A stretch of DNA of 58,364 nucleotides, taken from Cyanophora paradoxa CCMP329. Lineage: Eukaryota > Plantae > Glaucophyta. Shown here piece after piece: positions 5,302 to 25,739 of this stretch; position 1 is the stretch's first letter; the number at the start of each line of letters is the position of its first letter. The stretch is from contig QPMI01000697.1 of assembly GCA_004431415.1 (NCBI GenBank), positions 1 to 58,364 of the forward strand. The letters run 5' to 3'. The position numbers were made by a program, and so were the translations under genes. The notes under the pieces were generated by a model, which worked only from the letters and a program-made list of their open reading frames with translations, did not search any database and was not told where the DNA came from.

Positions 5302-6714
5302 AGAGGTTCAGAGAGGGTAGATCTGCATTGATTGAAATGTATGCAGAACTCAGTACAACAAACACATTGGTTGCTGGGTTTCAGGTGCCTTTCTTAAAAA
5401 AGATATCGCAAAAGGATTAGATTGCAGATGGAATAAGGACAAGAAAAACATGGGAGACCTTGGAATCGAACCATTTGTAGCATTGCTTTCGAAGCAGCTT
5501 TCGAAGAAAGATCCAAAACATTGATGACCATTGCCAAAATCTTAAACAATCAGGATTTCGCAAATCCCTTCTGACTGACTTGGTCCCACTGCTGAATGAT
5601 GATGAATTCTTTGAGAAGATTGACACTGTACCATATGTGATTGGATTCGAAAATGGTGTATTTGATCTGACAACTATGACTTTCAGAAAGGGGAAACTGG
5701 AAGATATGGTGAGCAAGACTGTGGGTTATGACTATACTGAAAATGTAGACCCCAAGAAAATAGAGCATCTCAATCAGATTTATAAAGAGATTGTGGATGA
5801 TCCAGCAGAGCGAAAGTACCTTCTGGCATCCATTGCAATTGCTCTTAGTGGATCAACTAAATCCCAGAAGTTCTATATGTGACTGGTGCTGGTGCTAATG
5901 GTAAATCACTTGTTCAGGAATACTGCAAACAGATATCTGGTCGTTATTACAGCCCTCTCGAAATATCCTATTGGACTAAGCCTAAAAAGAACTCATCAGA
6001 GGCTACTCCTGAACTTGCCAAACTCCTTGGAAAGCGACTTGTATTCAGTAATGAGGCTGAAGATGGTGATAAACTGCAGATCTCCAAGATTAAGGAGGTC
6101 ACAGGTGGAAATGAAATGACTGTGAGAGCCTTGTTCAAAGATCCAGTTATCCTCACTCCAATGTTTCAAGTTTACATTACAACTAATGACAATTTGACTA
6201 TTAATAAACCAGACTTCGCAATTCAAAGAAGACTTTCATACCAGAGATTCAACAATATTTTCAGAGAGAAGCCAGAAGCTGGTCAGAAGAAAGCTGATCC
6301 AACTCTGTTCACACTTCTTCACAATGATGATGAGTATAAGATGGCTCACATGAAGATATTACTGGATATGTGGAAAAACAAAGAGGTTGAAGAGATCTTA
6401 AGAAGTCCCCCTCAATCGATTATTGAACAGGGAATTAACTTTATAGCTGAAAATGACAAGATGGTGAATGGCTTCGAGATAATTTCGAGGTTACACATAA
6501 TGCTAACGACTTTGTTTCCAGTGATATCATTTACAAATCATACAAAAGTGTTGATGATAAAGTTGAATGTGTATCTGTGATGAAAAGAGTAAGGGAAATC
6601 TTCAATGTTAAATCAGAGGTTAAACGAATTCATGGAACCAGAGCAAGGGGCTACATTGGACTTCGAAAGATAACAAGGGTTCAAGAAGACAATGGAGAGG
6701 ATGTTGAATATTAA
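5302..6714 (+). CDS. D5-like SF3 helicase with C-terminal winged-helix-like region, frameshifted
   Basis: D5_N motif IGFENGVFDL..FRKG..EDMVSK, Walker A GAGANGKS, LGKRLVFSNE, KEVTGG..VRALF, TTN, AIQRRL. A shifted frame continues WLRDNFEV..RGYIGLRK to the stop at 6712-6714. No primase domain recognised. Confidence 0.9.
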
Positions 6715-6777
6715 ACAAAACGATTAATGATTGATTTGTATATGTAATTTTTATAGCCTTACTGGAAATGGTGTTGT

Positions 6778-6905
6778 TCACAGGTGTCACAGGTCCATCC
6801 CAGGGAAAGTCAAACATAAAAAATGATTTTGAAAATCGGTGGGATAGACCTGTGACACCTGTGACACCTGTGACACCTGTGACACCTGTGACACCTGTCA
6901 CACCT
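6778..6905. promoter_or_regulatory. Candidate iteron-type replication origin, copy 1
   Basis: Two inverted plus six direct 9-bp ACCTGTGAC units flank an AT-rich core containing GATTTT-G-AAAATC. Lies ~65 bp downstream of the helicase stop. Confidence 0.6.
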
Positions 6906-6971
6906 ATCGAAAAAGACCAAAATTTGACAAGAATACTTAAGGCTTACTTGATTGTGTATAGTGAAGACAAA

Positions 6972-7193
6972 ATGGCAAAGACTCTTGATGAGATGACCAT
7001 GACTGAGTTAGATAAATGCATAAAGCATGGAGATATTGGAGCATATATCGAAATGTCACAGAGATTGATAGGTTACAATATGTATGCAGCTAAACCAAAG
7101 AGAAATAGATCAGTTAACATTCACATTACTGTTTCAGTGTCTGAGAATGCAAACAAAAAACAACAAAAGCATATTTACAAAAGTTATCTGTGA
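6972..7193 (+). CDS. Small hypothetical viral protein
   Basis: ATG-started 3' part of ORF 6768-7193 (MAKTLDEMT...). The upstream part of that ORF is the iteron repeat. Confidence 0.4.
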   Translation: MAKTLDEMTMTELDKCIKHGDIGAYIEMSQRLIGYNMYAAKPKRNRSVNIHITVSVSENANKKQQKHIYKSYL

Positions 7194-7280
7194 CTTGATT
7201 GCAAGTATAAAGCCAATTCCTTTGTATATATTTTTATAGCTGCCTCAGTAGCATACTGAGACCGCTTTTTCTCAATTTTC

Positions 7281-7530
7281 TTATAGACCTGGGGTTCCAT
7301 TGCTACTATCAGTTGGCAAATAATATTTAATCGGTCTTCCTCTGGGTCTCTGCTCCTCTTTTTGGGCTTTTCTGCGATAATAGGATGCCAGGGCTTGCTG
7401 CTTTTTATACTCTCTATATTCTGGGTCCTCTCTATATCGTTTCTGCTTTGCTAGAATGTGTCTAATAGCACCCTCAGTTAAAGGCTCATCACTGGTAAAC
7501 TCGATCAAACTAATTGTATCCTCCATTAAT
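7281..7530 (-). CDS. Small basic DNA-binding protein with AT-hook
   Basis: KQKRYREDPEYREYKKQQALASYYRRK..RPRGRP; start approximate (MEDTIS...). Confidence 0.55.
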
Positions 7531-7842
7531 ATTTGCTGAGAAAACGTTTTCGCCTGGCAAAGAACTTCTCCTTGGATACTCCTGTTGCTCATATGTATAC
7601 TCTGTGGGGTCTGCTGGCATTGACTCCACTGAAACTGTTGATCTCCTTCTCTCTCTTGCTTCTGAGGCATTATCCTCATTATCTGACATCTCAAACTCCA
7701 CTGTTGTCTCACAACATCCACTGTGGCAATTGCTCACCACATGCAGACTGAACATCTCGAAGAACTTTCGTATTATGTCCATATCTCTAATAAAACAGAG
7801 ATAATTAAAGCCAAACTCGTCTTTTATATACTGTTGGGGCAA
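7510..7842 (-). CDS. Hypothetical viral protein
   Basis: Open frame colinear with neighbouring minus-strand genes. Confidence 0.4.
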   Translation of the reverse strand: MPQQYIKDEFGFNYLCFIRDMDIIRKFFEMFSLHVVSNCHSGCCETTVEFEMSDNEDNASEARERRRSTVSVESMPADPTEYTYEQQEYPRRSSLPGENVFSANINGGYN

Positions 7843-7851
7843 CTCCCTTTT

Positions 7852-8538
7852 CTACTTCAGCTTTGGTGGCACCAGGTTCAATGGTTCCCTTTTGGGTTTT
7901 TGTTTCATTTCATCTACTGCCTGCTCATCGATTTGGTTCTCTTTCTTAGCAATAAACTGTTTATCTGGGACACCAGTGATTCCCATTTTATAAACTTCCT
8001 TTCGAAGCATCTCCTTTAGCTTGGCTCTCTCTTTCTTCTCAGTAACATACTGCTCCAAAGCACTGGATTTGGCTTCCAGATCTTTGAGTTTAGCAGTCAT
8101 CTCATCCCATTGAGCCTTGGGAATTCGATGAATATTTTGAGTGGGAGCAGTCTTGTATGTGACTTCACCAGCCATAGACTGAATAACCTTGTCTGATTCT
8201 TTACTAAGACCCTCACCTTTGCGAGCCAGTGAAAGATCTTGCAAGCCTAAACCTTTGTCATCAGCAGCCCCAATAATTCGCCTGGCACCCTCAGCAACAG
8301 ACTTCATCTTTGAGGCTTCAGGTGAAATGTTGAGTTGGTCACTGGTTGAAGCCTGTGGGGCTTTGTCATCAAATGATTCCTCATAGGCAGCATTGAGGGG
8401 GTCTTCTTGTTGTTGAGAGGGCTTCACTTCATTCATACCATTGAATTTCAGTGGGTCTGTGTTAATGGATCCATTGTTTCCACCACCTGAATAGCCAACA
8501 GCCCCAGCTGGGATCCCTATCTTTCGTTTGGGAGGCAT
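7852..8538 (-). CDS. Hypothetical viral protein (NLS-like N-terminus, coiled coil)
   Basis: 228-aa ORF starting MPPKRK, adjacent to the ATPase in the morphogenesis block. Confidence 0.65.
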   Translation of the reverse strand: MPPKRKIGIPAGAVGYSGGGNNGSINTDPLKFNGMNEVKPSQQQEDPLNAAYEESFDDKAPQASTSDQLNISPEASKMKSVAEGARRIIGAADDKGLGLQDLSLARKGEGLSKESDKVIQSMAGEVTYKTAPTQNIHRIPKAQWDEMTAKLKDLEAKSSALEQYVTEKKERAKLKEMLRKEVYKMGITGVPDKQFIAKKENQIDEQAVDEMKQKPKREPLNLVPPKLK

Positions 8539-8566
8539 TGTATCTTTATTAGAATGAGAGATAATT

Positions 8567-9347
8567 TTATAAACCGCGTTTATATCGCATCAATTTATTG
8601 CTATGGACTTGGCTTTTCACTTCTTTGGGGGCTTCCTCTTTCTCTGGTGGTTTCAGTTCATCTTCTTTCTTTTTTGGCTTCCTGTGGAAGCGAGGAAATG
8701 GGAAATCTTTCACAAGCTCAGCTTTATCTACATAGTATTTAACTGAGTAGTTTGCAGAGGACCAAATGATATACTGATAGGAGTGAACATACTCTTCAAA
8801 CATCTTGTAGAAATCCTCTTTATTTCGCATTATATTGTATTCTTCCTCTATGGCTTCCAGTTCTTTGCGATTTGCAGCACTTAGAAACATTGCATAATCC
8901 GAATTTACTCGAATAGTCGAAGAGACTTTCTTAGCTTTTGTGTGATGCAGATAATGGATATTTTCGAATGGCGACCTCTGGAATACAGAGATCCGATTAT
9001 TTTATCCCTTGTGAGATCGACTATCTCATTATCGATTAAATCATCTAAAACCACACACAATTGGTTACAGGTTCACCTTTCTCTATTTTCTCTTGCCTCT
9101 CATCTAGCAATTTAGCAATGTAAGGGGCATCCCATTTTCCCAGTTGCAGTGTTGCCACTTTATCCCAGAAATGATTGAAGCTGGTTCCACTCACAACTAA
9201 TACAACATCAATCTTTTTGGCATCATGTAATTGCTTTAACCAATACTTTACAGCTTCTGATTTACCAGTTGCTGATTTTCCTATTGCCAATACACGAAAT
9301 GGTGGTTCTATCATTTCACCAGCCACAAATTCATCCAAATCAGTCAT
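8567..9347 (-). CDS. A32/FtsK-HerA family genome-packaging ATPase (one frameshift near 9055)
   Basis: Walker A IGKSATGKS. After the shift: VLDDLID (Walker B) and LYSRGRHSKISIICITQ..STIRVNSDY, joining ORF 8567-8890. Confidence 0.9.
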
Positions 9348-9411
9348 TGTTGTATATCTTTCTTAATAAAGACATATAAAAATAATGCAGGAGACTGAAA
9401 ATCGTAACAAT

Positions 9412-10808
9412 CTATAAATTAATTCTGCGTAAACCATCTTTGTCGACAATAATAAAGCTATGCATGAGAGCGCGAACATTAACATCGATTACCTTATCTG
9501 AAGGCATGTAGAGGGTGAGGAATGAAGAGGAGGAATTTGTTAAATCAACATAACCAGACTGGGCAATATTTCGAATCGCCTTTTCTCCATCAAGGCAGAA
9601 AGGCAATCCTGAAAGGACATAGCGATCAGCAACCTTATCCATGTTAGAGCATTTGAAGGCATCAGCAATTAGCTCAGCACCTTTGAGTAGGGAAATTGGC
9701 TCAGTGGCAAAAAGTCGCTGACCATTTATTTCAGTTGTAAATGTTATGTCTTTGGAGTTGGCATAGGTCTTAAGAACACTGTGGGAGCCATTGGATTTGT
9801 CAACAGTTGCATTATCACGAACTGAAACAAGCAGAGCATATACAAGACCTGAGATTTGAGAGAGGTTAATTCGATTGGGTTGGGCATTGCCCTTAGCAGG
9901 GAAAGCAATAGCATCAACAATCCAATATCAAGGGAGGGAATAGCCATGCCAGTAGTCTTAACTTTTTCAATTACAGTAGCGAAAAGCTCATCAGAAACAT
10001 TAATAGCATGCATATAAAGGCGAGGAGAAGTAATTGAAATTTCAGGAGTTGTTGCACCAAGAGTAAAGTCTGTGATGTTTTGACCAACATTTGCCAGAAC
10101 AGTTTCAGCAGGGGCAGTTCCAAGACCATCATCTTTTGAATAATCTACATCAGCTGCTGCAACAGTAAGACCACGACCACCATAGGAAGTTTCAACATAA
10201 CCCTTTCCAGCATCCTTAAACCAAACAGTAACAACCATTTCACCAGATAAAGCACCAAGGGGAAGGTAGTGATTTAGCCAAGGCACAGGAATTTCAACAA
10301 AGAATGAGCCACCAAGGCGGTTGGTTCCATGAGCAGGGATGCCATGAACCATGCCCATTGATCGCTTCTTTTTAGCTAGTTGATCCTCCGAATAATAGAC
10401 CAGGGGGAAATGAGCAAGGAAATCAGATGGAATATGGTAGGTGTAAGATCCATAGGTAATTTCAAGTCGCTGAACTAAAGCACCAACTGGGCGAGTGTAT
10501 CCATTGCGAACTAGATCAGTATCACCAGCAAAAGTGATAGCTGGAAGGTCAAAAGCAAGTTCGAGTTTTCCACAGAAATTGTAGCGAGGTAGCTTGAAGG
10601 AAATGCGATTTCCTACATTATTTGTGAAAGTATTACTAGGATTCACAACAACTAGAACTGGCTTAGACTTGGATTCGAGACCAAGCATAAGGGAGTTATC
10701 CAGGAAAAAGGCTTTCGCCTCCTCTGGGTTGTTAGGGCTTCTTTCAGCGAAAGTCTTTGAAGAGTGGAAGTGATATCCATTATATTCTCTTTTATTATAC
10801 TGCAACAT
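9412..10808 (-). CDS. Major capsid protein, double jelly-roll (one frameshift near 9925; ~465 aa)
   Basis: Located between ATPase and penton. Beta-rich motifs ISFKLPR, LVQRLEITYG, YLPLGAL, and a C-terminus VNVRALMHSFIIVDKDG. One base restores a continuous frame. Confidence 0.8.
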
Positions 10809-10833
10809 AAAAAATCTACCAATGATCCTTAAT

Positions 10834-11844
10834 TTATGCGAAGTTTGTAATAACTGGATAGGAAGGGTGAAGCTGCGACATTCTCATCTTATAGTATTCA
10901 TAAACTGGGTCCCCAGCTGGCTCATCACCATAGCGAATTTCAAAGGTAAGATGAACAGGTTGACCCTCGAAATCAATTGGTTCATTAACAGCATTCACAA
11001 TATCAACCGAGAAAGTGGATAATCCAACCTTCTTATTATAGTATTTGTAAAGTGGATGAGCCTCTGTCGAATTGTAAACTACATGCTCACCATAATCTTT
11101 GTCAGGGACCACTATTTTATGGAAGTAACCAGTCAGGAGACCATCCCCACATTGCACCAGATCACCCAGCTCCTTTACTCTCACAAACAAAACACTGTCC
11201 CTGGTCATTTCAGGCTCAAATGAAGATATAATACCGTTTACTCGAGTTCCAGTAAAGATTCCATCAGTGAGAGCATCATAGACCTGTGATTTGATTGGGG
11301 AATTACCATATCTTCCAGGATCAAGACCAAGCAGTCTACCTGAACTCAATAGCTTTTGAATTGTTTGCAGGTTTGGATTTACAGCAAGTGAGAAAGCCAG
11401 GTAAAACTTTTTTTCGGAATGGAATACTATTCGTTTCAGTGACTCATCCCATTTGCAGCGAACAGATGGTTTAGGATTTCTGTCATTAAACTTTTCATTT
11501 ATAACATTCACCAGCTGTTGGTGGTTTTGAATGGGGGTTTCGCGATTTACAATGAATTGTTTCCATTGTTCAAAATCAGCAGCTGGGCGAGTTGTTGGAA
11601 TTCCTGTAATTCCAGCTCCCGCAAGCTCTTCAGAATAGTAAATACTAAATGAATTGTCGATTGTTACATCTCCTACTTTGGTTTCCCCACTCACCATAGG
11701 GATGCTGTTATAAAATTCGGCTGAGACCAGTCTCACAGCCCTCACATTCTCATAAGTACTGGGGAGTCTAGCCACAAAGCTTGATGTGGGACCATCACCA
11801 GAGATTGTATTAAATGAGCTAACCTCGATGTAATCCACAGGCAT
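10834..11844 (-). CDS. Minor capsid (penton) protein 1
   Basis: N-terminal IEVSS..PTSSFVARLP..ENVRAVRLVSAEFYNS and C-terminal LSTFSVDIVN..IDFEG..LTFEI, the PLV/NCLDV penton pattern. Confidence 0.82.
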   Translation of the reverse strand: MPVDYIEVSSFNTISGDGPTSSFVARLPSTYENVRAVRLVSAEFYNSIPMVSGETKVGDVTIDNSFSIYYSEELAGAGITGIPTTRPAADFEQWKQFIVNRETPIQNHQQLVNVINEKFNDRNPKPSVRCKWDESLKRIVFHSEKKFYLAFSLAVNPNLQTIQKLLSSGRLLGLDPGRYGNSPIKSQVYDALTDGIFTGTRVNGIISSFEPEMTRDSVLFVRVKELGDLVQCGDGLLTGYFHKIVVPDKDYGEHVVYNSTEAHPLYKYYNKKVGLSTFSVDIVNAVNEPIDFEGQPVHLTFEIRYGDEPAGDPVYEYYKMRMSQLHPSYPVITNFA

Positions 11845-11873
11845 TCTTCTTTTATCTATATTTATATATTAAA

Positions 11874-12806
11874 ATGAACCGGCTCGTTAATATTGATAGC
11901 AGGGATAGAAGCCAAGGACAAAATGAAAACTCTTACAGGGTCACCCTCACAACTCCAGTAGAGAGACCAAGGGAATGCAGGGTTCTATATGCAGAGATTC
12001 CAAACAGCATCTATAACAGTGTGGGAACTGATCATCTAACAGTTCAGTTTAATTACCAAGATGGTTCATATAACCAAGTGATCACACAACAAGTGTATCC
12101 CCTTCCCAGTGGCTACATCAATCAGGGTCATTTTGGGGTAACACACCCTTATAATTATGGGCTGAACTATTCAAGCTTCCAAACCATTGCAGGCAAAACA
12201 GTAGCTTTTGAGTTCAAGATATTCTATAACCCAACTACCTATAAAGTGGAGTTTTACAGTAACCATGAGTTTCGTTTTATTGCAAGCAACCAGAGAATAG
12301 GGAAGCTTTTGGGTGTAAGTTCTACTGAATACACCAATGGGTATTATAGCACTCCTCCTGTTGGTGGATCACCCTATCGACCTGAGAACCTGTTAAAGTA
12401 TGATGGCAAACCTATTACACCTGATCACCCAGCATGGGGAACCACCTTTTCAGGACCCAGACTCTCATCTAAGCCCTTGCAATATTATTTTGACAGCAGA
12501 AAGATGTCTGATATGAATGCTGAGCAGTATCTATACATGCACATTAAAGAGCTTGCCCCTTTTGCCAGCAGACACAATATAGTTCCGAAATCGCAACCAC
12601 ACAACCAGGGGGCAATCCTTAGATTGCAATTGAGTAAAGATATAGGTGGCTATGTTTACCATAGTGGTGAGCATGCCGAATTTATTCAAATAAATGACAG
12701 AAACCTGGTGATAAGGGAACTCACAGTTGAGTTTAAAGATTACTTTGGTGAACTGATTGATATGAATGGAATCGATAATTCTTTTCAGTTGGAGTTTATC
12801 GAATAA
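11874..12806 (+). CDS. Minor capsid (penton) protein 2
   Basis: VNIDSRDR..YAEIPNS and IRELTVEFKDYFGELIDMNGIDNSFQLEF. Confidence 0.85.
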   Translation: MNRLVNIDSRDRSQGQNENSYRVTLTTPVERPRECRVLYAEIPNSIYNSVGTDHLTVQFNYQDGSYNQVITQQVYPLPSGYINQGHFGVTHPYNYGLNYSSFQTIAGKTVAFEFKIFYNPTTYKVEFYSNHEFRFIASNQRIGKLLGVSSTEYTNGYYSTPPVGGSPYRPENLLKYDGKPITPDHPAWGTTFSGPRLSSKPLQYYFDSRKMSDMNAEQYLYMHIKELAPFASRHNIVPKSQPHNQGAILRLQLSKDIGGYVYHSGEHAEFIQINDRNLVIRELTVEFKDYFGELIDMNGIDNSFQLEFIE

Positions 12807-14352
12807 AGGCACCTGTAAAGTCAACTCTCATTGTGGGAGCATTCACATACACAAGGGGATAAATGCGAATATATTTAATTCTGAGAGAAAAACCTATGTA
12901 AAAAGCATCCTTGATGCTGAGAGGAAATCCACTCAATAGAGCCACATCACCTGAGTTGTGAGCATTGTTAATGTTCTCACAGACATATATTTTGTTTTGC
13001 CCATCTGATCGAATAAAAGACCAGTTGATCCCATCAGTGGATGTTGCCACATTGAAAGTCTTAATAAAAGCATTGGTGTCCCCTGAACCATAGGCAATAA
13101 CAGAGGAGAGTTCGAAAGTATATGGGAAAGCAACTTGAAGGTATTCAGTGGGGGTTTCCCATATCTGCTCAGGAGCATAGGCTCCAGCTTCCCAGCCAAA
13201 TGCTGAAGGTCTAGCCATGAAAGGCTCTTTACCTGTCACAGAGGATGAGGCAGTGAAGGCATCATCTGCAAGCTGATACCAATTTGCATCCAAAGGAGGT
13301 GATGTAGTGAGAGTGGATGAGATGTAAGCCTTTGTAGGGTTCTTTAATTCATAGTTTGCTACTAGAATGCTGCAAAGCTTATTAATCATATCATTGTTTG
13401 CTGCTATGTATGTTTCAGTGAATGCTAGCATATCTGGGATCTTAGAAGTGTCATCAAGGGAGCTTACTATGTGATTTGGAAGTGGGACTGATAGCCTATA
13501 GTATCTACCATAATCTTGATCATAGTTGTAGGGTAACAACTCCTCCATCTTATCAAGGGCAGAAAGCTCACTTGCAGCCATGAGCATGTTAATCAATGGG
13601 CTTCCATCTGTTGAGGCAATCCATGAGAGAATGCCCCAGCTGTTCACAGTCTCATAAGCATAACCCACATAATCAGACTCTAAATGTGGGTCCACCTCAC
13701 CACAAGAGATACTTATTACTATTATATCATCATCATCACTGTAAATCTTCTTTGCATGGCTGTAACCACACACACTGGGATTATTGTTTCCCGAAATGGC
13801 ACCATCAATGAGACAGACAAATACTCCCCGATTGAAATCAACAATGCTTACAGGAGAGAAATATGTAGGAGCAGCAGAAGTAGCCCTAGCAGCAATCTTA
13901 CAAGGCATAAAGTTGTAGTTGTTGTCATTTGTGATAAATATTGGTTTCATATTCTGAGTATCAAAGGATGTAATCACAATGTCCTTTAGGGAATCCTGTA
14001 TTAGTGATTCACCAGTAACTGAATTAATTGCAGTCTCCAAGGGTCCCACATCATATTTTGTATTAAAAAGGGCATTTTCGATGATATTTCGAGGATTTGC
14101 GAAAATCAAGGGCAGTTGAGTTAGGTAAATATTGTGTAAATCGTTTGCTGTCAGTTTAGGTTCACCTGGTTTATCAGGATGCCTGATATTCAAACCTATT
14201 GCAATGATCCCACCAGTGGAAGTTCCACTTACAAGATCCACAAGATCGATTACTCTTCTGCCAGTTCGATTTTCGATTTCTTTTAGCAGCCTGGTTATGA
14301 TAATGCCCCTTGCACCCCCGCCAGAAAGACTTAAAACGACCTTGAGAGGCAT
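12796..14352 (-). CDS. Patatin-like phospholipase fused to F5/8 type C (discoidin) domain
   Basis: GGGARG, GTSTG, ATSAAPTYF and DGA motifs. C-terminal FTASS..EYLQV..IKTFNVATSTDGINW..KYIRIYP..MRVDF. Confidence 0.92.
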   Translation of the reverse strand: MPLKVVLSLSGGGARGIIITRLLKEIENRTGRRVIDLVDLVSGTSTGGIIAIGLNIRHPDKPGEPKLTANDLHNIYLTQLPLIFANPRNIIENALFNTKYDVGPLETAINSVTGESLIQDSLKDIVITSFDTQNMKPIFITNDNNYNFMPCKIAARATSAAPTYFSPVSIVDFNRGVFVCLIDGAISGNNNPSVCGYSHAKKIYSDDDDIIVISISCGEVDPHLESDYVGYAYETVNSWGILSWIASTDGSPLINMLMAASELSALDKMEELLPYNYDQDYGRYYRLSVPLPNHIVSSLDDTSKIPDMLAFTETYIAANNDMINKLCSILVANYELKNPTKAYISSTLTTSPPLDANWYQLADDAFTASSSVTGKEPFMARPSAFGWEAGAYAPEQIWETPTEYLQVAFPYTFELSSVIAYGSGDTNAFIKTFNVATSTDGINWSFIRSDGQNKIYVCENINNAHNSGDVALLSGFPLSIKDAFYIGFSLRIKYIRIYPLVYVNAPTMRVDFTGAFIR

Positions 14353-14395
14353 CTTTTACTTATCAGGAATTTTATAAATCCATATAGTAAAAGCC
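14353..14395. promoter_or_regulatory. Symmetric bidirectional viral promoter candidate
   Basis: 43-bp divergent spacer with AGTAAAAG before each ATG and a central palindrome ATTTATAAAT. Confidence 0.5.
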
Positions 14396-17300
14396 ATGAG
14401 CTTCAATTACCCACCAAATCTAGAAACCATTCAAGATGATAATGCAAGCAGCACCAAGCATGTGAACTTTGATAATATTAAAGTAAAGGGTTCAGTTTCA
14501 ATTGACCACAGCTCTGATAATTCATCAAAGACTCAATCAAGGGAGCATGCTTTATCTGTGAATCAAACCGATCCAGATAAGGAGGAAGTCAGTGTAGCTT
14601 TTAGCTTGGGTAATGTGAAAGCAAACCAAGTGGCAGAGATCAAAGCAACAAGAAGGAGACCTAGGAAACTAAAAACCAGTGGCACTCATCCAGATATACC
14701 TTCCAGGTTTGATAGTGGTCGTTTGGTTTTCAATGTTCAAGATGAGCAGGGCAAACAGAACACAGCTTTGCGAATTTACAATGAGGGCAGCACTGCAAAA
14801 GCTGAGGTCCCCAAGTATTGCAAGTGGGTCCCATTGCCAACACAAATCAGGTCTCCTACACAAATGATGTCTACCCAAAGGATATTACATATGACTTTGC
14901 AAGGAATGAGCCTTTTGGGTTCTTTACTCCAAAAGATGTCCATCAAAAAAAGCCATCAATTACAATCAACAGTAGCCCCAGTCAACCAGTAGCAATCCAT
15001 TTACATCCTGATTTAGTCGAAATGGATAGGCACCTTTTGCCTTTGTATAGCAATGTGAAAGACCTTGGAATTCGAACCAGGCAATGGCGAAATATCCATG
15101 GCAGTAATGTGTATGCAAATGGTGAGAAGCTTGTAAGTGAGAAGACCATAAGAGAGATCTTTGAGTATTATGGACCTGTCCCAGTTCCCTTCCCTCTTCC
15201 ATGGGATCCACCGGATTTAACACCAAAGAAGCAGCCTGGAAGAGAATACACAGCAACTGAAGATGTAGCCTTTGGGCAGCATATTGTTAGTTGGGAGCAA
15301 GTTCGCAATAAACCGATAATTGAACCCAGAAAGCAAATAGATGAGCAGTATTTACCTCCTGAAGTCGATATTTTAGAGCTTGATGAATATCAATTCGTTC
15401 CAGATGAGGAGGAGTATTTACCAGATGGTTTTGACCCACAAGAATATGAATATGATCAGTATGACCCCAATGAGGAGGAGATACTACCAGATGGCTTAGA
15501 TCCTCAAGAGTATGAGTATGAGCAGAACTATGAACCTGATGAGGAGTATTTACCAGATGGTCATGATCCACCAGTTGTTGACTATGAGCAACCTTATGAA
15601 CCCCATGAGGAATTATTACCAGATGGATTTCGACCTGAGATCTGGGAGTTCTTTCCTGATTATGAACAAATTAATAATAAACCTGCAAAGTATCCCCCAG
15701 AGGATCACAATCATGATTGGGATGAGATCTTAGGCAAACCTCAAAAGTATCCACCAGAGGATCACAGGCATGATTGGGGTGAAATTGATGGGATACCTAC
15801 TGAGTTCCCACCAAGCAAACATGAACATATTTGGGATGAGATCAATGACCAACCAGAATTTGCAAAGGTAGAGCCTCTTGATAACTTGGGGGTTTCTCTT
15901 TACCAGACTTGCAATGTCCCTGAAAGAATCTTTTTGAATGAACACTATGTACATGTGAATGGGACACTTGCGAATTCAGCTATGAGAGGACCACTTCATA
16001 TTAGGACATTACCAGGCTCTTATGAAACCCCACCTGAACCAGGAGCAACCATACCAAATATCTTTGTGTCAAGCTACATGGAGGCTGACATTCCCACAGA
16101 TACATTCAGAGTCCCAACAGACCCAGCAACCTACCAAAATTACAACTCTGCTATACAGGTTCATGTAGCAGATGTAAGCAGCTTAGATGGCTCAAGACCA
16201 ATGATAGTATTCAGTCGAGATAAATATTCCTACATTCCCATAGTGGGAACTGCAAATGATAACTATGGGAGGGCAGAGCTTGCATGGATTAAAACAGATT
16301 ATGGTGGGGTTCTGGAAGCTAATCAGAGGATGGCTGCAAAAAACATACACAATGAGAACATTTCGAGAGTGGTCACAGAGGATTACCTTACTGCAGTAAT
16401 CCTTGTTAATTTTGTAACCCTTGCTATGCTTGATCAATTTATTACAGAAGCTGAACTTGCAGCAGAACTATCCAAATATCTCCCTCTTGTGGGTGGGACA
16501 ATCACAGGAAACCTCACAGTTAATAGTAATATTTACAGCAGCAATATAGTGACCAGCAACCTAAAAGTAAATGGAATCCTCACAATTGGCTCTTGCAATT
16601 TCAATACCATGAATCAGGTTTACGAAGAATGGTATGATGTCCCACCAAGCTTTGATCCAGCATCAAATATCTCGAACTGCATTTTTGCTTGGAAGGCATC
16701 AGGAGTACCAGGTCAATCAGCAATGTATACAACTATAGTAAGCAGAGTCCCGAATTCAGTTGTTCCAGACTTGTTTATCTACGGAGCCAGTTCCTATTAC
16801 ACCAATCCCGAAATCAACAACCAAATTAGTGTTTCAAGCCCAACAGGTACTTTTTATGCATATACCTCAGCTACAAGGACTATTGATTTTTCAAATGGGC
16901 TTACATTTTTCTTTGTGGGAAAATATCATCCAACAACCTCTTCTATGCAAGTTCATTTGAGACTTTACAGAAGCGCCTCTCCATCACGATATTGTTATTA
17001 TGGGGCTACATCTTCTACTGCTATTGGAATGAACCAGTTCACTATTAATGGAGTATCCCAAACCCGCCCAGTTATTACGGTTCCTTCTTTAATAAATACA
17101 TGGTATTACACTGACCAAACAATTACTTCTAGCAGCTACACAGTCGGGTTAAATGGAGTAGATATTCAAACACTTGTAGGAACGAATTATCTACCAGATA
17201 ATACTGTCAATCATTTCGGATTTGGTAATATTGTGAATGGTGGTATTTCCGAGTTGATTGTTTTCAATAGGGCTTTGACAACTTCTGAAAAGAATGCTGT

Positions 17301-19536
17301 GAGGTATTACATTCAACAAAAATATGGATTCACTCATACCCAGACTCTGAATATTTACAGAGGATTAAAAATAACCTCACCTGATACTGTAATAGATTAC
17401 CTTACAGTTACAAGCAATGCAAATTTACCACATCATCCAACCTCTAATGTGGTTCAAGGTTGGATTCAAAATCACACTCACACAAAAGCCCAGATTACAG
17501 ATTTTGACCACACCCATGCCTGGTCGAATATTGTAGATAAACCTTTGACCTTCCCTCCCAGTTCTCACAATCACTTATGGGAGCATATCACAGACAAGCC
17601 ATTGACATTCCCTCCCAGTTCTCACAATCACTTATGGGAGCATATCACAGACAAGCCATTGACATTCCCTCCTGATTCCCATACTCATGATTATACCCAG
17701 ATCACCAACTGTAATCACAGACACCCTTGGAGTGAAATTGACCAGCAACCCAAATTTGCATCTGCAGGCAACCTGCTAACAGACTTCCCACATGGTGTGA
17801 GTCTTTACCAGAGTAATACCATACCTGAGAGGCTACAACTAAATGATTATTATGTCAATCGAAAGGGTATTGATGCAGGCACTACTATGGAAGGTGAATT
17901 ATACATTAGACCCCCTACAAGAATGCAGATGATTGCAGCAGGTGGAAATTTCGGAGCATTGGACACCAAACCAGGTATCTATTTAACCAGTTACTATGCT
18001 GATGACATCCCAATGACAGGAGGATTAATATCTCTACCATCTGATCCAGTCAACTATGATGACAAAGATGCAGCAATCCAAATTAATGTTACTGATGTGA
18101 GTGATTTGGATGGTTCAAGACCAAAATTAATATTCAGCAGGGAGAGACTGTTACCTGATGCTCTCATAGGAAATCGAGATGACTATAAGAGATGTGAGAT
18201 GGCATGGATCAAAACGAATTATAATGGTGGAGTTGGTGAGGGAGTTCTAGAGATCAATCAGAGGGCAGCAGCAAAGAATATTCACAATGAGACCATATCA
18301 AGAGTGGTGACAGAGGATTACCTTCAAGCCCAGAACTACATAGATGAAACAGAACTTAATACAATCATTGCAGGTATACATGTCACAGGAAATTACCTCC
18401 CTCTCACAGGTGGGATTATTGATGGAACAGTAACAGCATGCAACTTCTTTGTTCATACTGAAAGCAATCAAACCTTCCCTGTGGTTCATCCAGGAGGTGA
18501 GTATGAGATACCAGATGATCCAGCTATAATGCCCATCAAGATTGATCTACCTTCTGATTATGTTGGAAGGGGTGAACTGAAGACAATTTCATTCACAGGA
18601 GACTATAATGATCTCATCAATAAACCTACTGCTGCAAATCTGCATCCTGTTGCATTTTCGGGGAGTTTCCTTGATCTCAATAATAGATCACACACCCACA
18701 CAAAAGCAGAGATCACAGATTTTGCACACACTCACACAAAATCCCAGATCACAGATTTTGCACACACCCATACAAGGGAAGAAATAACGAATTTTGCTCA
18801 CGCCCATTTTAAATCCGAGATCTCAGATTTTGCACACACTCATGTAAAGAGTGAGATTACAGATTTTGCCCACAATCACACAAAGGCAGAGATTACAGAT
18901 TTTGCACACACTCATGATTGGAATACAGATATTTATAACAAACCCGCGATATTCTCAGGTAACTACAATGATCTGACCAATAGACCAACTCTTGATCCCT
19001 TTACAGCAACCACTATTAGAGCCAACAACACTATGTATGTAGGATCGGGTCAGATAGTAGAACCAGCAGGACCTATGTTTGATGAAACATGGTTCTTCCA
19101 CAATTCGCAGAATTATTATGATCAAACTCTATTGGTCAGAGGAAATGCATATGCAAGGAATTTTTATGCTATGAACCCTACCGATAGCTCGACTATTAGT
19201 AGATGTATTACAGAGGCGGATCTTTCCAGTCAACTCAATGCATATTTTAATGGGAAAATCCAAGCAGGAACGTATGTTTACACTACTCCTTATCTTTGGG
19301 CAAACCCTGACCATAGATTTAACCTCACTATTAATTTCAACAGCAGTTTTGCTAACCCTCCTATTGTAACAACCGGTATACAACACAATGAGACAGCCTA
19401 CTACTACCGCATGTATGTTAGGCTTAAACAAGTTTACAGTAGCTATTTCACATGTGAGCTTGAAATAGTTCCATTAAGTTCTTTTGACAGACCAGGATTT
19501 CCAGTTACAATTCATTACACTGCTGTCGCAATTTAA
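14396..19536 (+). CDS. Giant fibre/spike protein (~1,710 aa, one frameshift near 14815)
   Basis: Acidic LPDG repeats, phage-fibre HxH repeats, YLPLxGG motifs, a LamG-like domain (ISELIVFNRALT..YIQQKYG), an internal duplication, and an H-lectin/gp53-like C-terminus. Confidence 0.8.
17548..17672 (+). repeat. 57-bp coding tandem repeat (TFPPSSHNHLWEHITDKPL)
   Basis: Near-exact direct duplication visible in the DNA. Confidence 0.85.
18690..18916 (+). repeat. 36-bp coding tandem repeat (HTHTKAEITDFA, ~6 copies)
   Basis: 12-aa periodic repeat in the translation. Confidence 0.85.
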
Positions 19537-19555
19537 CTATTTCGTTATTACAAAG

Positions 19556-20604
19556 ATGACCTCTCTATTAGAAATCCCAAACTACGAATTTGCAGCCAAA
19601 TCAATCCATAGCACCTCTCATGGAGTAGTTGATTCAACCCTGGGTATATTTGCACTGAAACTTCAAGCAACACCTCTTTCACAGAGAACAATATACTCAG
19701 AGTCAAAGAAATTCGATGTGATCGCAATGGAGGCAAGATAAGAACCACAGGAATTATAATCTCGAATAAAAATCAAGTTCAAGCAGGTCAAGTAGTTCCC
19801 GATTCAGCAATATATGATAATGTGAGTGGATTTACCACTGCACAGATAGTTACTTTTGGGAACACAAGCAATACTGCAGCTCTTGTAGTTAAGAGTGGAG
19901 GGGCATACTTTGGAGAGGCATTAAAGGTGAATGGAACAGTAACAGCACCCATACTAAATGCTGGAAGTGGAACTTTTGAGAGTCCAATAACTTTTCAGGG
20001 TGGATTTAATGCGAGTAGTCTTTCAGTTGGTGTTGGTGTCTTCTCCACAAAGTTAAACACACCTGAAATTCAAACAACAGCTGCACTGAATATAAAAAGA
20101 AATGCAGTTGTTACAGCAACCATTAACAGTGTTTCCCCATCCATTGATCTACTTAAATATCTGAAAGTTCCACACCCTCGTTTTTGTGTTGTTGCTTATT
20201 CAACATCAGGATTTAATGTTGGAGCAACAGTAGCAACAAGGAAATTCACTTATAATAGAGTTCTTGTAGATGCAAGCAATAGTGTCAGCAACGCAGGCTA
20301 TTTTACAGCACCTGTTTCAGGAATTTATAGATTCTTCTTTATGGTTCAAATGTCAACAACAGCATCCACAGGGGAGTGTAGAATTAGTTTTCAAAAGAAT
20401 GATTTGTTTATTTCCCCCCAATCGGTTCAAGTATTTTCAACTTTCAATGGAAAGCGAAGTGTTCACATGGAGGCTTCTTTTCCTGTATATGAAAACGAAT
20501 CTGTGAATGTCATACATATCTGGTCATCATACATATATGTTGAACCAACGGGGACAATTGGTGGTACTACCTGTTTCGGGGGGCATCTCATCAGTAGATT
20601 ATAA
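19556..20604 (+). CDS. Fibre paralogue 1 with C1q/TNF-like head (one frameshift near 19645)
   Basis: Restored N-terminus aligns with 20627 (ICTET..IRCDRNGGKIRTT); FTAPVSGIYRFFF C1q motif. Confidence 0.8.
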
Positions 20605-20626
20605 ACTTTTTGTAGGGGTTTTATAG

Positions 20627-21649
20627 ATGGCTACCCAAATCGCAGTCCCTGTTTTCTGTTATGCAGCGCCTAAATTGCATCAACTGAACCACACAGTCAC
20701 AGATGCTATTCCCGGGTTTATTTGCACAGAAACCACAGGAGCAGATTCGTTTACTCAAAATTCGATTATCAGATGCAAGGAAATTCGATGTGATAGAAAT
20801 GCTGGAAAAATAAGAACCACTCAATTAATCGTGAGTAACAAGAATCAGGTTTTAACAGGTGGTGTAGTTGCTGATGCAGCAATTTATGATGATGCAGGAG
20901 GGGTGACCACACCACAAATTGTTACTTTTGATGGGACAGAAAATAATGCAGCACTTGTAGTTAAATCAGGTGGAGCATGGATAGGTTCGGGAGCTTTTGT
21001 GAATGGGACACTCTCAGCTACAAACGTTTTAATTTCAGGAGCAACAACATTTACAGGTGTTGTGAATGCAAATGGTGGTCTTTCTGTTCCTACTAATACA
21101 GTCCCTGTAATGACCACAACCACAAAGATACAAACACCTGAAATAGATACAGGAGCAAATGTGGATCTGATTCTGAAACGAAATAGTACAGAAGTTGCAC
21201 GAATTGATGCAGGAGGTCTCACAATCGCAGCAAACTTTTATTTGAAGCAAGCAACCCAACCTCGATTCTGTGTTGGGTTCGGTTTAGCAACAAGAGATGC
21301 AGTCTTTGGACGTCTTACGAATTGGTTGCATGAATTCTTTGATAATACCAACTCATTCGATTTAGTAGAAGGGAAATTCACAGCACCTGTTTACGGAGAT
21401 TACAGATTCTCTCTAACTGCTTATAGTATTACTACATCAACTGTGAGTGTAGATCTGAAAGTAAATGATCAGAATGTTTCAACAGAATTCAATTTCAGGG
21501 TAAACAACTCACAAACTGTAACCAACAAAACAATCAATTTGAGCGCAATAGTAAGACTTGGAGCAGGCGATAATGTTTCTATTCATGCTAATCATACTTA
21601 TCTTTCGGAATTCACAACATTTAGTGGCGAATTGCTGAGCATAATTTAA
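20627..21649 (+). CDS. Fibre paralogue 2 with C1q/TNF-like head
   Basis: FTAPVYGDYRF, LGAGDNV and FSGELL motifs. Confidence 0.85.
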   Translation: MATQIAVPVFCYAAPKLHQLNHTVTDAIPGFICTETTGADSFTQNSIIRCKEIRCDRNAGKIRTTQLIVSNKNQVLTGGVVADAAIYDDAGGVTTPQIVTFDGTENNAALVVKSGGAWIGSGAFVNGTLSATNVLISGATTFTGVVNANGGLSVPTNTVPVMTTTTKIQTPEIDTGANVDLILKRNSTEVARIDAGGLTIAANFYLKQATQPRFCVGFGLATRDAVFGRLTNWLHEFFDNTNSFDLVEGKFTAPVYGDYRFSLTAYSITTSTVSVDLKVNDQNVSTEFNFRVNNSQTVTNKTINLSAIVRLGAGDNVSIHANHTYLSEFTTFSGELLSII

Positions 21650-21668
21650 TTTCTACAAGTAGTATAGA

Positions 21669-21932
21669 ATGTCGAATATCTACCAAGTGGTTCTTTCAGA
21701 TACTGAAAATCTCGCAATGGAATATTGCGCTTTATCTGTTCAAGATTGGATTGATAATGCTGTTCACAACAGGGCGAGAATTGCAATTGATGAAATTGTT
21801 CAGAAAGAGATTCAATCTTGCATCTCATCAGGAGTTCAAATACCAACCTCAAAGGAAGCAATTGTGTCACAGGCATTCCAAAGGGGAACTGTAAAGAAAG
21901 GTATTGAGTATAATAATGTTACAGAAGAGTAG
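21669..21932 (+). CDS. Small protein resembling phage tail-fibre-associated proteins
   Basis: EYCALSVQDWIDNAVHNRARIAIDEI resembles, from recollection, small ORFs that follow fibre genes in aquatic phages. Confidence 0.6.
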   Translation: MSNIYQVVLSDTENLAMEYCALSVQDWIDNAVHNRARIAIDEIVQKEIQSCISSGVQIPTSKEAIVSQAFQRGTVKKGIEYNNVTEE

Positions 21933-21969
21933 TGAACATTATTTTCTTTCCTTCTTAGTAAAAGAAGCA

Positions 21970-22814
21970 ATGGGTGAATATAATCGAGTTCAACTGCCTA
22001 TATATTCCTTGGATCCCCTGCAATGCATTTTCGCCAGCATGAAGTTAATGATGAGGTTCGTGGTTTAGAATCCACAGAGAGACCCAACTCCAATGGTAAC
22101 TCCTTTGATAAAAATTCGATTATTCGAGTTAAAGAGCTGAGAGCTGATAAGAATTCTGGTGTGGTTAAAACAACTCGACTGCTTGTCACAAATGCAAACT
22201 TCTTTCAGCCTACCAATGGAGGTCCAGATGCTTACAGTGTTGATCTGAAAGCCCTTGATTTCGATAAGAATTCTGCAGCTGTCACTGTGAGATCAGGAGG
22301 AGCATTTATTGGGGGTGGCTGTCGAATTTCAGGTCAGCTTTCATCCTCAATTTCGTATAATGATGTCCCAGATACTCTAGAGCAAAATGTGGAAGACCCC
22401 CAACGAATTCGATTATATACTCCTGTCGCACAGCAGCCATTAATTCAATTTTACATTGGATATACTGTTACTCTTGAAAACTCGGAATTAATTGAAGGAA
22501 CCAAAAGAGTACTGAGAGGTCTTGCGATTCCATCTGCAATGCTTTCCCTTTGTAGAGCCAACAACAATCAAGTAGGTCATAAATACTATTTCAATGTTCA
22601 GGGATATAATCATTTCGGTTATGGCTACTGTGTTTATAATAATAATTTCACCTTTGACTTGTTTGTTACAGATATTGGGTTATATACTATAACTCTTATC
22701 GGTTTGAGAACAGATATAGCCGCTGTATCAGCTCTTAGAGGTGTAACTCCTGATACTCTTTCAGTTACAGGGTTTTACCAAGAGCCAGATGTAATTGATG
22801 ACCCAACCCCATAA
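21970..22814 (+). CDS. Fibre paralogue 3 (frameshift near 22012)
   Basis: Shares the KELRADKNSG..TTRLLVTN..SGGAFIG N-terminal domain; non-C1q C-terminus. Confidence 0.75.
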
Positions 22815-22837
22815 AAGATATATCCCTTTAATGTAAA

Positions 22838-23671
22838 ATGGCTGAGCAACCCCCACTTGAACGAATTATTACACCACAGCTATCATTAGCTGCCCCAGCA
22901 AACCATGTTCTGCAGCATGCTACCTTTGATGATGTAGAGGGTCTCCAATCAACAGAGGTCCAACCTACAATGAACACCTTTGGTTCCACCCACAAACTGA
23001 GATTACAGGAACTCAGATGTGATAAAAATAATGGTATAGTTAAGACAACTAAGCTACTTGTCACAAATGCAAACTTTTCTGCTCATTATGGAGACCCAGA
23101 TAGCTATGGAGATCCTCTGTCTACTTATTCTTTTGAATCTAGGTCGGGAGCTATTAACTGCAAATCGGGGGGAGCTTATATTGGTGATGGTCTTAGGGTT
23201 GGTGGGGCTGTTGGAGCGCCTTTATTTGTGAATGATCAACCCAATCCCATTGATCCCAATACAAGAATTCGAACCTATGTCCCCAGCATGAATGCCCCAT
23301 ACATTATAAAGATATTCCCCATTGTTGTAAATGAACAAACAGCAGTAGTAGACTCTCTTGTTGAAATTGGTGACCACTACAAGGTAGTTGTGGATATCCC
23401 ACCAGATGTTTATGCTCTTTGTCAAGTAGAGGGTGGAACTCCTAATTTTGCAGTTGTGATCACCCCATATGATAATTTTGGTATTGCTTATCATGGAGTC
23501 AATTTCGGTTTAGAAGATTACCAGTTCCTGGTTAGAGCCACCAAGTTTGGTATCTACAAGTGTGTATTATATGCTGAGAGAACCGATTTTATTGCAAAGC
23601 AGAATACCTATGCTGAATACTATGGGACAAATCGATATTTCCCCATTTTTGGGCAGGATACTGCTCCATAA
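22838..23671 (+). CDS. Fibre paralogue 4
   Basis: QELRCDKNNG..TTKLLVTN..SGGAYIG; C-terminus homologous to paralogue 3. Confidence 0.78.
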   Translation: MAEQPPLERIITPQLSLAAPANHVLQHATFDDVEGLQSTEVQPTMNTFGSTHKLRLQELRCDKNNGIVKTTKLLVTNANFSAHYGDPDSYGDPLSTYSFESRSGAINCKSGGAYIGDGLRVGGAVGAPLFVNDQPNPIDPNTRIRTYVPSMNAPYIIKIFPIVVNEQTAVVDSLVEIGDHYKVVVDIPPDVYALCQVEGGTPNFAVVITPYDNFGIAYHGVNFGLEDYQFLVRATKFGIYKCVLYAERTDFIAKQNTYAEYYGTNRYFPIFGQDTAP

Positions 23672-23693
23672 GAATATTGGTTATATATAGAGT

Positions 23694-23966
23694 ATGGATA
23701 GTAAAACAAAAAAGTTTATTGATGCTGCTATGACAGTTCATGGTAAAGATAAATTCGATTACAGTGAGACACATTACATCAAAGCTCAAGAGAAAGTATC
23801 TGTTAGATGTTTGCAGTGTAACAAGGTGATCCTTACATATCCCTTTAATCATGTGAAGGGATCAGGTTGTAGGGAATGCAACAAAAAGCATTCTCAGGCT
23901 TACAGGAAAAGGGCTACTTCATCAATCAAAGTAGAGTACAGGGATATTTGCATTAGGTTCGATTAG
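23694..23966 (+). CDS. Zn-ribbon protein (DUF723-like, homing-endonuclease-associated domain)
   Basis: FIDAAMTVHGKDKFDYS..KVSVRC..C..NHVKGSGCREC; no nuclease domain follows. Confidence 0.7.
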   Translation: MDSKTKKFIDAAMTVHGKDKFDYSETHYIKAQEKVSVRCLQCNKVILTYPFNHVKGSGCRECNKKHSQAYRKRATSSIKVEYRDICIRFD

Positions 23967-23995
23967 GATTAATTAATTTTTCTAAGGTATTCTTA

Positions 23996-24394
23996 ATGGA
24001 GACTAAATACAGAGGCTTTCATGTAATGCTTGATTACAAGGCTAAAACAGCTATAGCAACAGGTTATGAGCATGTTAGCTTTCTTGGTAATTGGATTATG
24101 AGAACCCTTGAACAAGCAATATTGAGACAAGGTATTAGGATTGTTCATAAACACTGTGAGATATTTGATGGGAAACTATCACCTCCTGGTTTTGCATTGG
24201 TTCTGCTATTAGATGAAAGCCATTGTACAGCTCATTGTTATTCCAATGAAGGCATGTTAGCAATTGATATATTCAGTTGTGGTAAAGAAGCTCAGCATAA
24301 AACACAAGCAGTAGCAGATGAGATCGATAAAACAATGAATTTCCTCACATTTGAGAAGACTGAGAGACATAAACATGATAGATTCCCGTTTTAA
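23996..24394 (+). CDS. speD: S-adenosylmethionine decarboxylase proenzyme (short prokaryotic/viral type)
   Basis: G.H..LD at the N-terminus, PPGFALVLLLDESHCTAH with the E-S self-cleavage site, AIDIFSCG. Confidence 0.9.
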   Translation: METKYRGFHVMLDYKAKTAIATGYEHVSFLGNWIMRTLEQAILRQGIRIVHKHCEIFDGKLSPPGFALVLLLDESHCTAHCYSNEGMLAIDIFSCGKEAQHKTQAVADEIDKTMNFLTFEKTERHKHDRFPF

Positions 24395-24822
24395 TGGGTT
24401 TCTATAATGATAATCAGGGTGATTTACCTTTTTTATTACAATAGCTTTCTACAATGATTATTTTCCGGATTCCGGACATTTTTTACAGTAGACATTCTAC
24501 TGTATGATGTAGCCGAAATATGAATGCACCCTACACATTCAAGTGTAAGATTTCGAATAATGTTCGATTTCCTTACACTAAAACTCAGCATCTGCCCAAG
24601 ATTCCCCCTATAATTAAAGTGGCCTCAAGGTTGACTCATATTAATCGATAGTATATGGATTTTGTTACGAATTCAATGCAAGGGTTGACTAAGTGGGTTG
24701 AGTTGACTCAAATTTCACAGGAAATAACAATGAATCAGAGTATAAAATGCATTTTTTGAATCAACTACACCAACTAACACTGAGATTTTCACAATATATG
24801 AGGTCCTTACTGAATATGGTTT

Positions 24823-24925
24823 GTGTCACAGGTGTCACAGGTCTATCCCGTGGATTTTAAAAATCAATTTCTCACTAGGACTTTCCTTGGGATTGACCTG
24901 TGACACCTGTGACACCTGTGACACC
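24823..24925. promoter_or_regulatory. Candidate iteron-type origin, copy 2
   Basis: Two inverted plus three direct ACCTGTGAC units; the core is the reverse complement of the copy-1 core. Confidence 0.6.
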
Positions 24926-25167
24926 CAAATTCCTAAGGGTCCCCCCTTAGACTCAACAAAACAATGATAAAATCATATAAGTTTCATGTATAATTACGAT
25001 TGAATTCAATAAGAGATCTATTTGTTAATATAAACAAATGAATCATTTATGGATCTTAATCGAGTTTAGCGATATGTTTCCGATTAAATGAATTAAATTT
25101 AATTAAATTTAATCGAGAAAGTACATGAATATAATATCGATTAAATCAATTAACTTTTAGACCAATC

Positions 25168-25450
25168 ACACATAGTAAAATGCGGAGTTTTAACCAGAGG
25201 CAAGATCTAATTGAGATTCAGTTATATTATTCGGAAATATATACAGATTATCGATTAACTCAGTAAGACTAATCGGAAAATAAGAGAAATTTACGATAAA
25301 ATATCAAAAAGAATACAAAATAATCGAAATAATTGAATATTCGATAAGATATACACAGATTATCGATTGATTGAAATAGAATATACGAGATATATCAACA
25401 AAATCAATTAAGATAAGCCGAGGGTTAAAACTCCGCATTTTACTATGTGT
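25168..25450. repeat. Right terminus: perfect 28-bp inverted repeat (25168-25195 / 25423-25450)
   Basis: ACACATAGTAAAATGCGGAGTTTTAACC and its exact reverse complement; host-like composition starts immediately afterwards. Confidence 0.8.
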
Positions 25451-25739
25451 AGTAGCATTCGACGTTTGCTCGCCGAAATAGTGGTTGGCATTTTCGGAAT
25501 CTCTGTTCGTGGAAAAGCGGAATTAATTTTGCGCCCGGAGACCGATACGTAAACGTATATGCATTTCGAATTCGGCAATAGAATGCGCACTGAACCGGAT
25601 TTCTGTGGCAGAGAAGATTTCCGCTTCTTCGGCCAGGACGCTGGATCCGCTCACAGGATCTATAATCGAGATCTGGATCGGCGCTCCACGCTGCAAAGAA
25701 TAAATCGATCAGAAGACGTCACCGCGCATGGGCAGCTAG

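Follow-up and report, generated by a model that had tools for sequence, protein, structure and literature searches.

Two homologous iteron sites in a Polinton-like element of Cyanophora paradoxa share the layout of helicase-loading origins

The window analysed here (the whole stretch of 58,364 nucleotides of contig QPMI01000697.1 from Cyanophora paradoxa CCMP329) begins with an AT-rich element (~39% GC, positions 1 to ~25,453) that is embedded in a GC-rich eukaryotic contig. The element encodes two hallmarks of Polinton-like viruses (PLVs), a DDE integrase and a family B DNA polymerase of the protein-primed type (pPolB), both detected through weak, fragmented matches. Two homologous sites in the element, one of which directly follows a D5-type superfamily 3 (SF3) helicase gene, consist of 9-bp iterons that converge on an AT-rich core. 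We consider that both sites represent a helicase-loading iteron origin of the design found in Staphylococcus aureus pathogenicity islands (SaPIs) and phage P4, duplicated in a protein-primed eukaryotic virus, and assign this reading a probability of roughly 0.6.

Structure of the two sites

Tandem arrays were located at positions 6848–6905 (6.4 copies), 24823–24842 and 24896–24925, in agreement with the original prediction of two homologous sites with converging 9-mers around a core of equal length (Table 1). Eleven of the 12 exact matches to ACCTGTGAC in the window fall inside the two sites, and 33 matches were counted when up to one mismatch was allowed, compared with 8.0 ± 2.8 expected. Each site forms a 24–27-bp inverted repeat, composed of iterons and an ATCCC/GGGAT inner arm, that encloses a 39-bp core with a GC content of 31%. 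The opposed iterons number 2+6 in copy 1 and 2+3 in copy 2, an asymmetry that had been described before and that we refine in one respect, as the outer left repeat of copy 1 is degenerate. This degenerate repeat (6775–6782) reads TGTTCACA, as does the first repeat of the P4 crr site, an identity that is probably a chance result of a one-base insertion. Both sites fold as hairpins (z −8.5 to −10.1), and a converging-repeat detector fired in 7 of the 250 scanning windows over 1–25 kb, all 7 of which overlap the two sites. The 61-bp iteron spacing and the core length are equal in both copies, with no indels despite a core divergence of 31%, and the core palindrome is kept at 12 of 13 positions.

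Copy 1 is located ~60 bp behind the stop codon of the helicase gene (6712–6714), as had been proposed. Copy 2 has no neighbouring helicase gene and lies 18 kb from copy 1, within ~1 kb of non-coding DNA; the element ends 530–650 bp to its right. The 16-bp flank common to both sites shows that copy 2 is a duplicate of the copy 1 unit. The regions of both copies are present in high-depth contigs of four short-read runs, and an independent short-read contig matching 24798–24866 with 3 differences joins the flank, arm and core of copy 2 in the orientation seen in the window, indicating that copy 2 is not a misassembly, which the original prediction had named as one possible refutation.

Table 1 Positions of the iteron sites and of other features of the element
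Feature	Position	Strand	Evidence
Left flank of copy 1, 16 bp, direct repeat of 24805–24820	6757..6772	+	14/16 match
Copy 1 left arm: two iterons (outer degenerate) and inner arm ending ATCCC	6775..6801	-	
Copy 1 core, 39 bp, 31% GC, palindrome GATTTT-N-AAAATC	6802..6840	.	
Copy 1 right arm: GGGAT arm and 6.4 iterons	6841..6905	+	
Left flank of copy 2, 16 bp	24805..24820	+	
Copy 2 left arm: two iterons and inner arm	24823..24849	-	
Copy 2 core, 39 bp, 31% GC, reversed relative to copy 1	24850..24888	.	27/39 reversed vs 17/39 direct; short-read contig
Copy 2 right arm: GGGAT arm and 3.3 iterons	24889..24925	+	
D5/P4-type SF3 helicase, frameshifted pieces (D5_N, ATPase, C-terminal domain)	5430..6714	+	PF08706, PF19263, TIGR01613
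C-terminal domain of the helicase, likely to read the iterons; RFX-type winged helix predicted	6469..6711	+	AlphaFold pLDDT 87; 1dp7 match
DDE (rve-like) integrase	2..859	-	PHROG transposase E 3e-9; NCBIfam IS481-type E 2e-8; 3' end beyond window
Protein-primed family B DNA polymerase (pPolB), frameshifted pieces, endonuclease-VII-like insert	1948..3367	-	PF03175 E 5e-5 twice; PF02945
Putative structural module between both sites: P-loop ATPase piece, capsid candidate, fibre-like proteins, patatin	7852..23671	.	
AT-rich right end of element, 26% GC; low-depth host-flank contig begins here	24930..25453	.	

Reversal of the core

Comparison of the 63-bp segments 6790–6852 and 24838–24900 gave 50 of 63 matches when one was reverse-complemented and 39 of 63 in direct alignment, which confirms the earlier count. 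The preference for the reversed orientation extends to the inner 39 bp, where the 27 reversed matches were reached in 0 of 100,000 shuffles. The left flanks, in contrast, match in direct orientation at a level expected for ~2e-6 of random 16-mer pairs, and the flank match was absent when the two sites were aligned in reverse, so that the proposal of a flipped core beside a direct flank holds. The base beside CAGGTC moves together with the core, placing the breakpoints of the flip inside the iterons. As the flanks stay direct while one core is reversed, a single 18-kb inversion is ruled out as the source, and a local inversion of the spacer fits; this is the simplest account of a change that is probably harmless and in itself probably ordinary. 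A spacer can be inverted when the inverted repeats around it undergo inter-strand template switching (PMC5453318). A joint at 6802–6891, present in three runs, may conceal a diverged or flipped core. One loose contig end carries TGATTTT in the copy 1 register together with a third core variant; the loose contig ends that were tested had no match anywhere in the window.

The helicase and its predicted DNA-binding tail

The helicase retains Walker A and B motifs, and its nearest relatives are full primase–helicase fusions; a strict homologue search with the helicase returned nothing. The last 81 residues were modelled confidently, and superimposition of this C-terminal domain (CTD) onto the RFX DNA-binding domain 1dp7 gave a Z score of 9.6 and an r.m.s.d. 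of 2.0 with 67 residues aligned. RFX winged helices headed the fold matches (Z 9.6 and 9.0, with the next at 5.1; Foldseek TM 0.70–0.71). The CTD modelled in this way is likely to read the iterons. The origin-binding tails of P4 alpha and of pRN1 ORF904 have been likened to the same RFX-type fold (PMC2777425), and the P4 domain was not among the fold matches listed for the CTD model.

Related iteron sites beside other helicases

A search with the DNA motif alone identified at least 119 metagenome loci and 4 viral loci. Of the metagenome loci listed that were ≥1 kb long and differed in their cores, 9 of the 19 with tandem 9-mers have the end of a D5/VapE helicase gene within ~310 bp vs 0 of the 54 with a single arm, a comparison that is partly circular, the helicase seeds being Pfam matches among 63 of 95 neighbouring open reading frames (ORFs) of these same loci. 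In viral contigs, an SF3 helicase ends within 350 bp in 14 of 35 tandem-18-mer loci, and many of the remaining ones are collagen-like coding repeats. When bacterial and phage D5 loci were collected by protein only (87 loci, reduced to 58 by removal of 3 short and 26 near-duplicate entries), converging repeats were found at the end of the gene in 26 of 58, compared with 118 of 1,169 background windows, although the iteron sequences varied.

Several further loci with such sites were recorded. Seven bacterial-looking loci (L014, L027, L029, L035, L037, L050 and L053) carry the iteron origin together with the right flank seen in helicase-linked copies, and the three of them that were checked (L027, L050 and L053) have an unrelated gene upstream; all seven are possible helicase-less (orphan) origins. 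Three phage-like contigs (L002, L124 and L016) contain the same converging iteron site with no SF3 helicase match nearby, the site in L016 coming after a family A DNA polymerase gene. A 9,950-nt environmental viral contig has mirror-image gene pairs (L159:632-9319), each arm encoding a 356-aa protein and an 803-aa PriCT_2-D5 helicase.

Comparison with known origins

The SaPI origin lies directly downstream of rep and has at least two opposed iterons on each side of an AT-rich region, and the SF3 self-loading helicases Rep1 and PriRep5 read these iterons through a C-terminal winged helix (PMC9371898; bioRxiv 10.64898/2026.10.17.759575). Copy 1 shares with this arrangement the position just behind the helicase gene, the opposed iteron sets around an AT-rich spacer and the winged-helix C-terminus, which is predicted here. 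It differs in its eukaryotic host, in the pPolB and DDE integrase genes that its element carries, in the primase, which was not found, and in its tandem iterons of 9-bp period, extended inner arms and second full copy 18 kb away. The sites span ~130–150 bp, whereas the SaPI origin spans ~300 bp.

In the phage P4 record, the same repeats make up two sites: crr (annotated as required in cis), which follows alpha at 46 bp, and ori, at a distance of ~4.5 kb. A pair of iteron sites, one of them behind the helicase gene, is thus a known design, and the P4 sites also agree with those described here in that one lies behind a D5-type helicase gene, one is distant and both have the same polarity. P4 has 35-bp AT spacers (31% GC in crr), comparable to the 39-bp cores at 31% GC, and its repeat, TGTTCACC/A, is one base longer than TGTCACA, with the first two crr repeats 9 bp apart. 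Unlike the element, P4 carries a primase in alpha, and its two sites do not duplicate a single unit; nor do the tails of the two helicases align in sequence.

Further counterparts are bacterial Prim-Pol-D5 elements (L040, L041, L061, L072, L238 and L239, of which L238 and L239 are located in alphaproteobacterial genomes) and phages with VapE helicases. These have the same TGTCACAG/CTGTGACA tandem 9-mers, arranged as 2+2 iterons around an AT-rich core, mostly 5–26 bp behind the helicase stop codon, and a similar wing sequence. They differ in that a primase is present and no core similarity is evident, and they are themselves uncharacterised; no core flip occurs among the members listed of the Prim-Pol-D5 family. 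The pRN1 origin, an essential stem-loop of ~100 bp with a 21-nt stem that starts 54 bp downstream of the ORF904 gene (PMC4234260), resembles the sites in its SF3 helicase with an RFX-like winged helix and in the comparable hairpin, but iterons are absent and a prim/pol domain is present.

Repeats in other PLVs offer a further parallel. Gezel-14T and other PLVs have repeats downstream of their replication modules and in their terminal inverted repeats (PMC11296320; bioRxiv 10.64898/2026.10.13.758929), and such repeats have been proposed as origins for PLV primase-helicases (PMC11296320). The direct repeat of Gezel-14T likewise lies directly behind the replication module and has a second copy at or near the terminus. 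The term 'iteron' has 0 occurrences in the main texts of Barth et al. 2024 and 2026, the figures and supplements of which may show such repeats. No description of an iteron origin in PLVs or virophages emerged from our literature search, which covered text from freely available papers; the figures and supplements of PMC12220804 may likewise show such repeats.

Weighing the origin reading

The proposal of an internal, helicase-loaded origin is supported by the position of copy 1, by the occurrence of the same motif behind bacterial and phage SF3 helicases, by the predicted winged helix and by the two-site layout of P4. Several results nevertheless weigh against it, in addition to the circularity mentioned above. 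Homology of the helicase to 150 relatives begins at 5430 at the earliest, with nothing upstream that matches the primase domains of these relatives, and Pfam scans of the ORFs in the window gave no match to a primase-domain family, the left end of the element lying beyond the window. Because its helicase has no primase domain, the element is neither a member of the SaPI/P4 group nor a self-sufficient replicon of that type; the sites likely work like SaPI and P4 origins without being classed with them. A profile of the CTD did not align with the P4 alpha tail (probability 0.1). Ten of the 19 tandem metagenome loci have no helicase match, several of them representing a bacterial family with an unrelated upstream gene. 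Neither a strand-change joint nor both core orientations at one site was observed among the 15 of 29 joints listed or in a second contig set, where contigs were mostly <100 bp.

The comparison with other eukaryotic viruses tells against the reading in the same way. The original prediction expected similar arrays behind the D5 genes of related viruses, but GC-containing converging arrays were found in 0 of 67 eukaryotic-virus D5 loci, compared with 15 of 2,332 background windows; the set (79 fetched, less 3 short and 9 duplicate loci) includes many giant-virus contigs by name and does not single out PLVs. A relaxed detector fired in 0–9 of the 67 loci, against a background of 1–6%, the clearest arrays belonging to three phage-like loci of high GC content. 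The capsid candidate, protein P0001 and the flank and inner-arm patterns led to no close viral relative, the pattern search giving a single match that is apparently coding. With no positive locus among the 67 and no close viral relative, conservation across PLVs is unsupported.

The expected co-variation of iterons and winged helix is hinted at by the wing motif RG[YF]..[ILVY], which was picked after the sequences had been inspected. Of 22 helicases beside the same iteron, 5 carry it, as do 0 of 69 D5 proteins of eukaryotic viruses and 0 of the 150 best ATPase relatives. This hint is tempered by the facts that the five carriers form one family (52–97% identical), that 13 VapE-type helicases beside the same iteron lack the motif and that the motif occurs without this iteron in 1 of 58 D5 loci.

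Proposed mechanism and alternative explanations

In the mechanism that we infer, the D5 helicase would recognise the converging 9-mers with its predicted winged-helix tail and melt the AT-rich core of 39 bp. Copy 1 would probably be the helicase's cognate site, moving together with its gene, and copy 2 a duplicate of that unit set near the right end. As no primase was found, the pPolB of the element itself would be the most likely user of the opened DNA, with the integrated copy or its end being unwound for release and protein-primed copying; a primase of the host or of a helper virus might be used instead. The core would probably have been reversed once, through a template switch or a crossover between the 24–27-bp inverted arms around it, the breakpoints falling in the iterons; the symmetry of the site would make this flip neutral. 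A tentative extension, to which we give distinctly less credence than to the origin reading as such, is that the sites form a P4-like two-site origin, in which the D5 helicase, itself lacking a primase, would load at each of them, perhaps bridge the pair, and open the provirus internally for release and copying.

P4 alpha loops ori to crr, and a strict version of the P4 model would make the two sites non-redundant parts of a bipartite origin bridged by the helicase, with copy 1 equivalent to crr, copy 2 equivalent to ori and a primase borrowed from the host or a giant virus, operating alongside terminal protein priming or replacing it. The P4 arrangement of crr behind alpha with ori 4.5 kb away and the same repeats in both, the non-coding surroundings of copy 2, and the tolerance of symmetric sites to opposite core orientations are consistent with such an origin. 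It is nonetheless improbable, given that no primase was found in the element and that crr and ori of P4 differ in layout, while the sites here duplicate one unit.

Slightly less probable still is that the sites are relics of replicase turnover, left when a phage-like primase-helicase module lost its primase after takeover by pPolB. The repeats would then be functionless and persist by slippage or template switching, and copy 2 would mark a module-exchange boundary. The primase–helicase fusions among the nearest relatives fit this explanation, as do the repeats described as bracketing PLV replication modules (PMC11296320; bioRxiv 10.64898/2026.10.13.758929) and the capacity of tandem and inverted repeats for self-homogenisation. 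A 39-bp core length kept without indels at 69% identity, the core palindrome kept at 12 of 13 positions, the Walker A and B motifs of the helicase and the presence of both site regions in high-depth contigs of four runs argue against decay.

The suggestion that the two sites serve to amplify, invert or excise the 18-kb structural module fared poorly. In its favour, each site is quasi-palindromic, which makes the two a direct and at the same time an inverted repeat of each other, with near-identity of up to 30–38 bp. However, no joint between 6.8 kb and 24.9 kb was present among the 15 of 29 joints listed or in the second contig set, no tyrosine recombinase was detected among the 29 ORFs scanned (the left end being beyond the window), and the flank and core pattern is incompatible with a single 18-kb inversion, a reading that we rejected; recombination sites are thus very unlikely. 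Just as unlikely are coding or transcription-regulatory repeats (a VTP-repeat protein, a promoter or a terminator), an explanation that draws on the 141-codon open frame containing copy 1 and on the same 18-mer in collagen-like coding repeats of several viral contigs, but whose coding form was rejected, as only 14 codons are open in the corresponding frame of copy 2, there is no Pfam match, and the converging layout and reversed core are left unexplained.

Setting and gene content of the element

The right junction is placed at ~25453, where the terminus reads ..GTAGT, because the flank contig starts at 25424. A 47-nt inverted repeat (81%, 25168–25214 / 25404–25450) shows that the terminal sequence recurs in inverted orientation ~240 bp inward. 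In the four short-read runs, most contigs of the element exceed the flank contig in depth many times over, which suggests that the element is a member of a multi-copy family, although summed contig depth does not equal copy number. Two frameshifts in the capsid candidate fall where almost the entire contig depth has a one-base insertion, indicating that at least some of the broken reading frames reflect errors or are peculiar to this copy. The capsid candidate has one relative at 55%; family and structure searches gave no match, and modelling of its fold failed to establish its identity (pLDDT 33), so that the double jelly roll is a candidate assignment only. A 1,504-aa ORF resembles a fibre ending in an H-lectin that PMC12220804 mentions for a PLV of C. 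paradoxa. The element also encodes an S-adenosylmethionine decarboxylase (23996–24394) and a patatin-discoidin protein (12796–14352), and the product of 23694–23966 is similar to the N-terminus of HNH endonucleases.

In the host part of the window, long inverted repeats at 31643–31861 / 40214–40419 (116 nt at 72%, 71 nt at 85%), ~8.5 kb apart, are possibly the ends of another mobile element, and a tandem array with a 128-bp unit (6.6 copies, 95% matches) occupies 43338–44176.

Implications for Polinton-like viruses

How PLVs are reactivated from the integrated state, and why a helicase adjoins the protein-primed polymerase in many of them, are open questions, and cis-acting origins in PLVs have so far been proposed in general terms only (as in PMC11296320). 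The locus described here supplies a candidate site of ~100 bp and a candidate reader of ~80 residues, and it would carry the origin design of phage satellites, down to the 9-mer, into a eukaryotic virus. If the two-site reading is true, a PLV would possess a sequence-defined internal origin, which would explain how replication restarts from a provirus without free ends.

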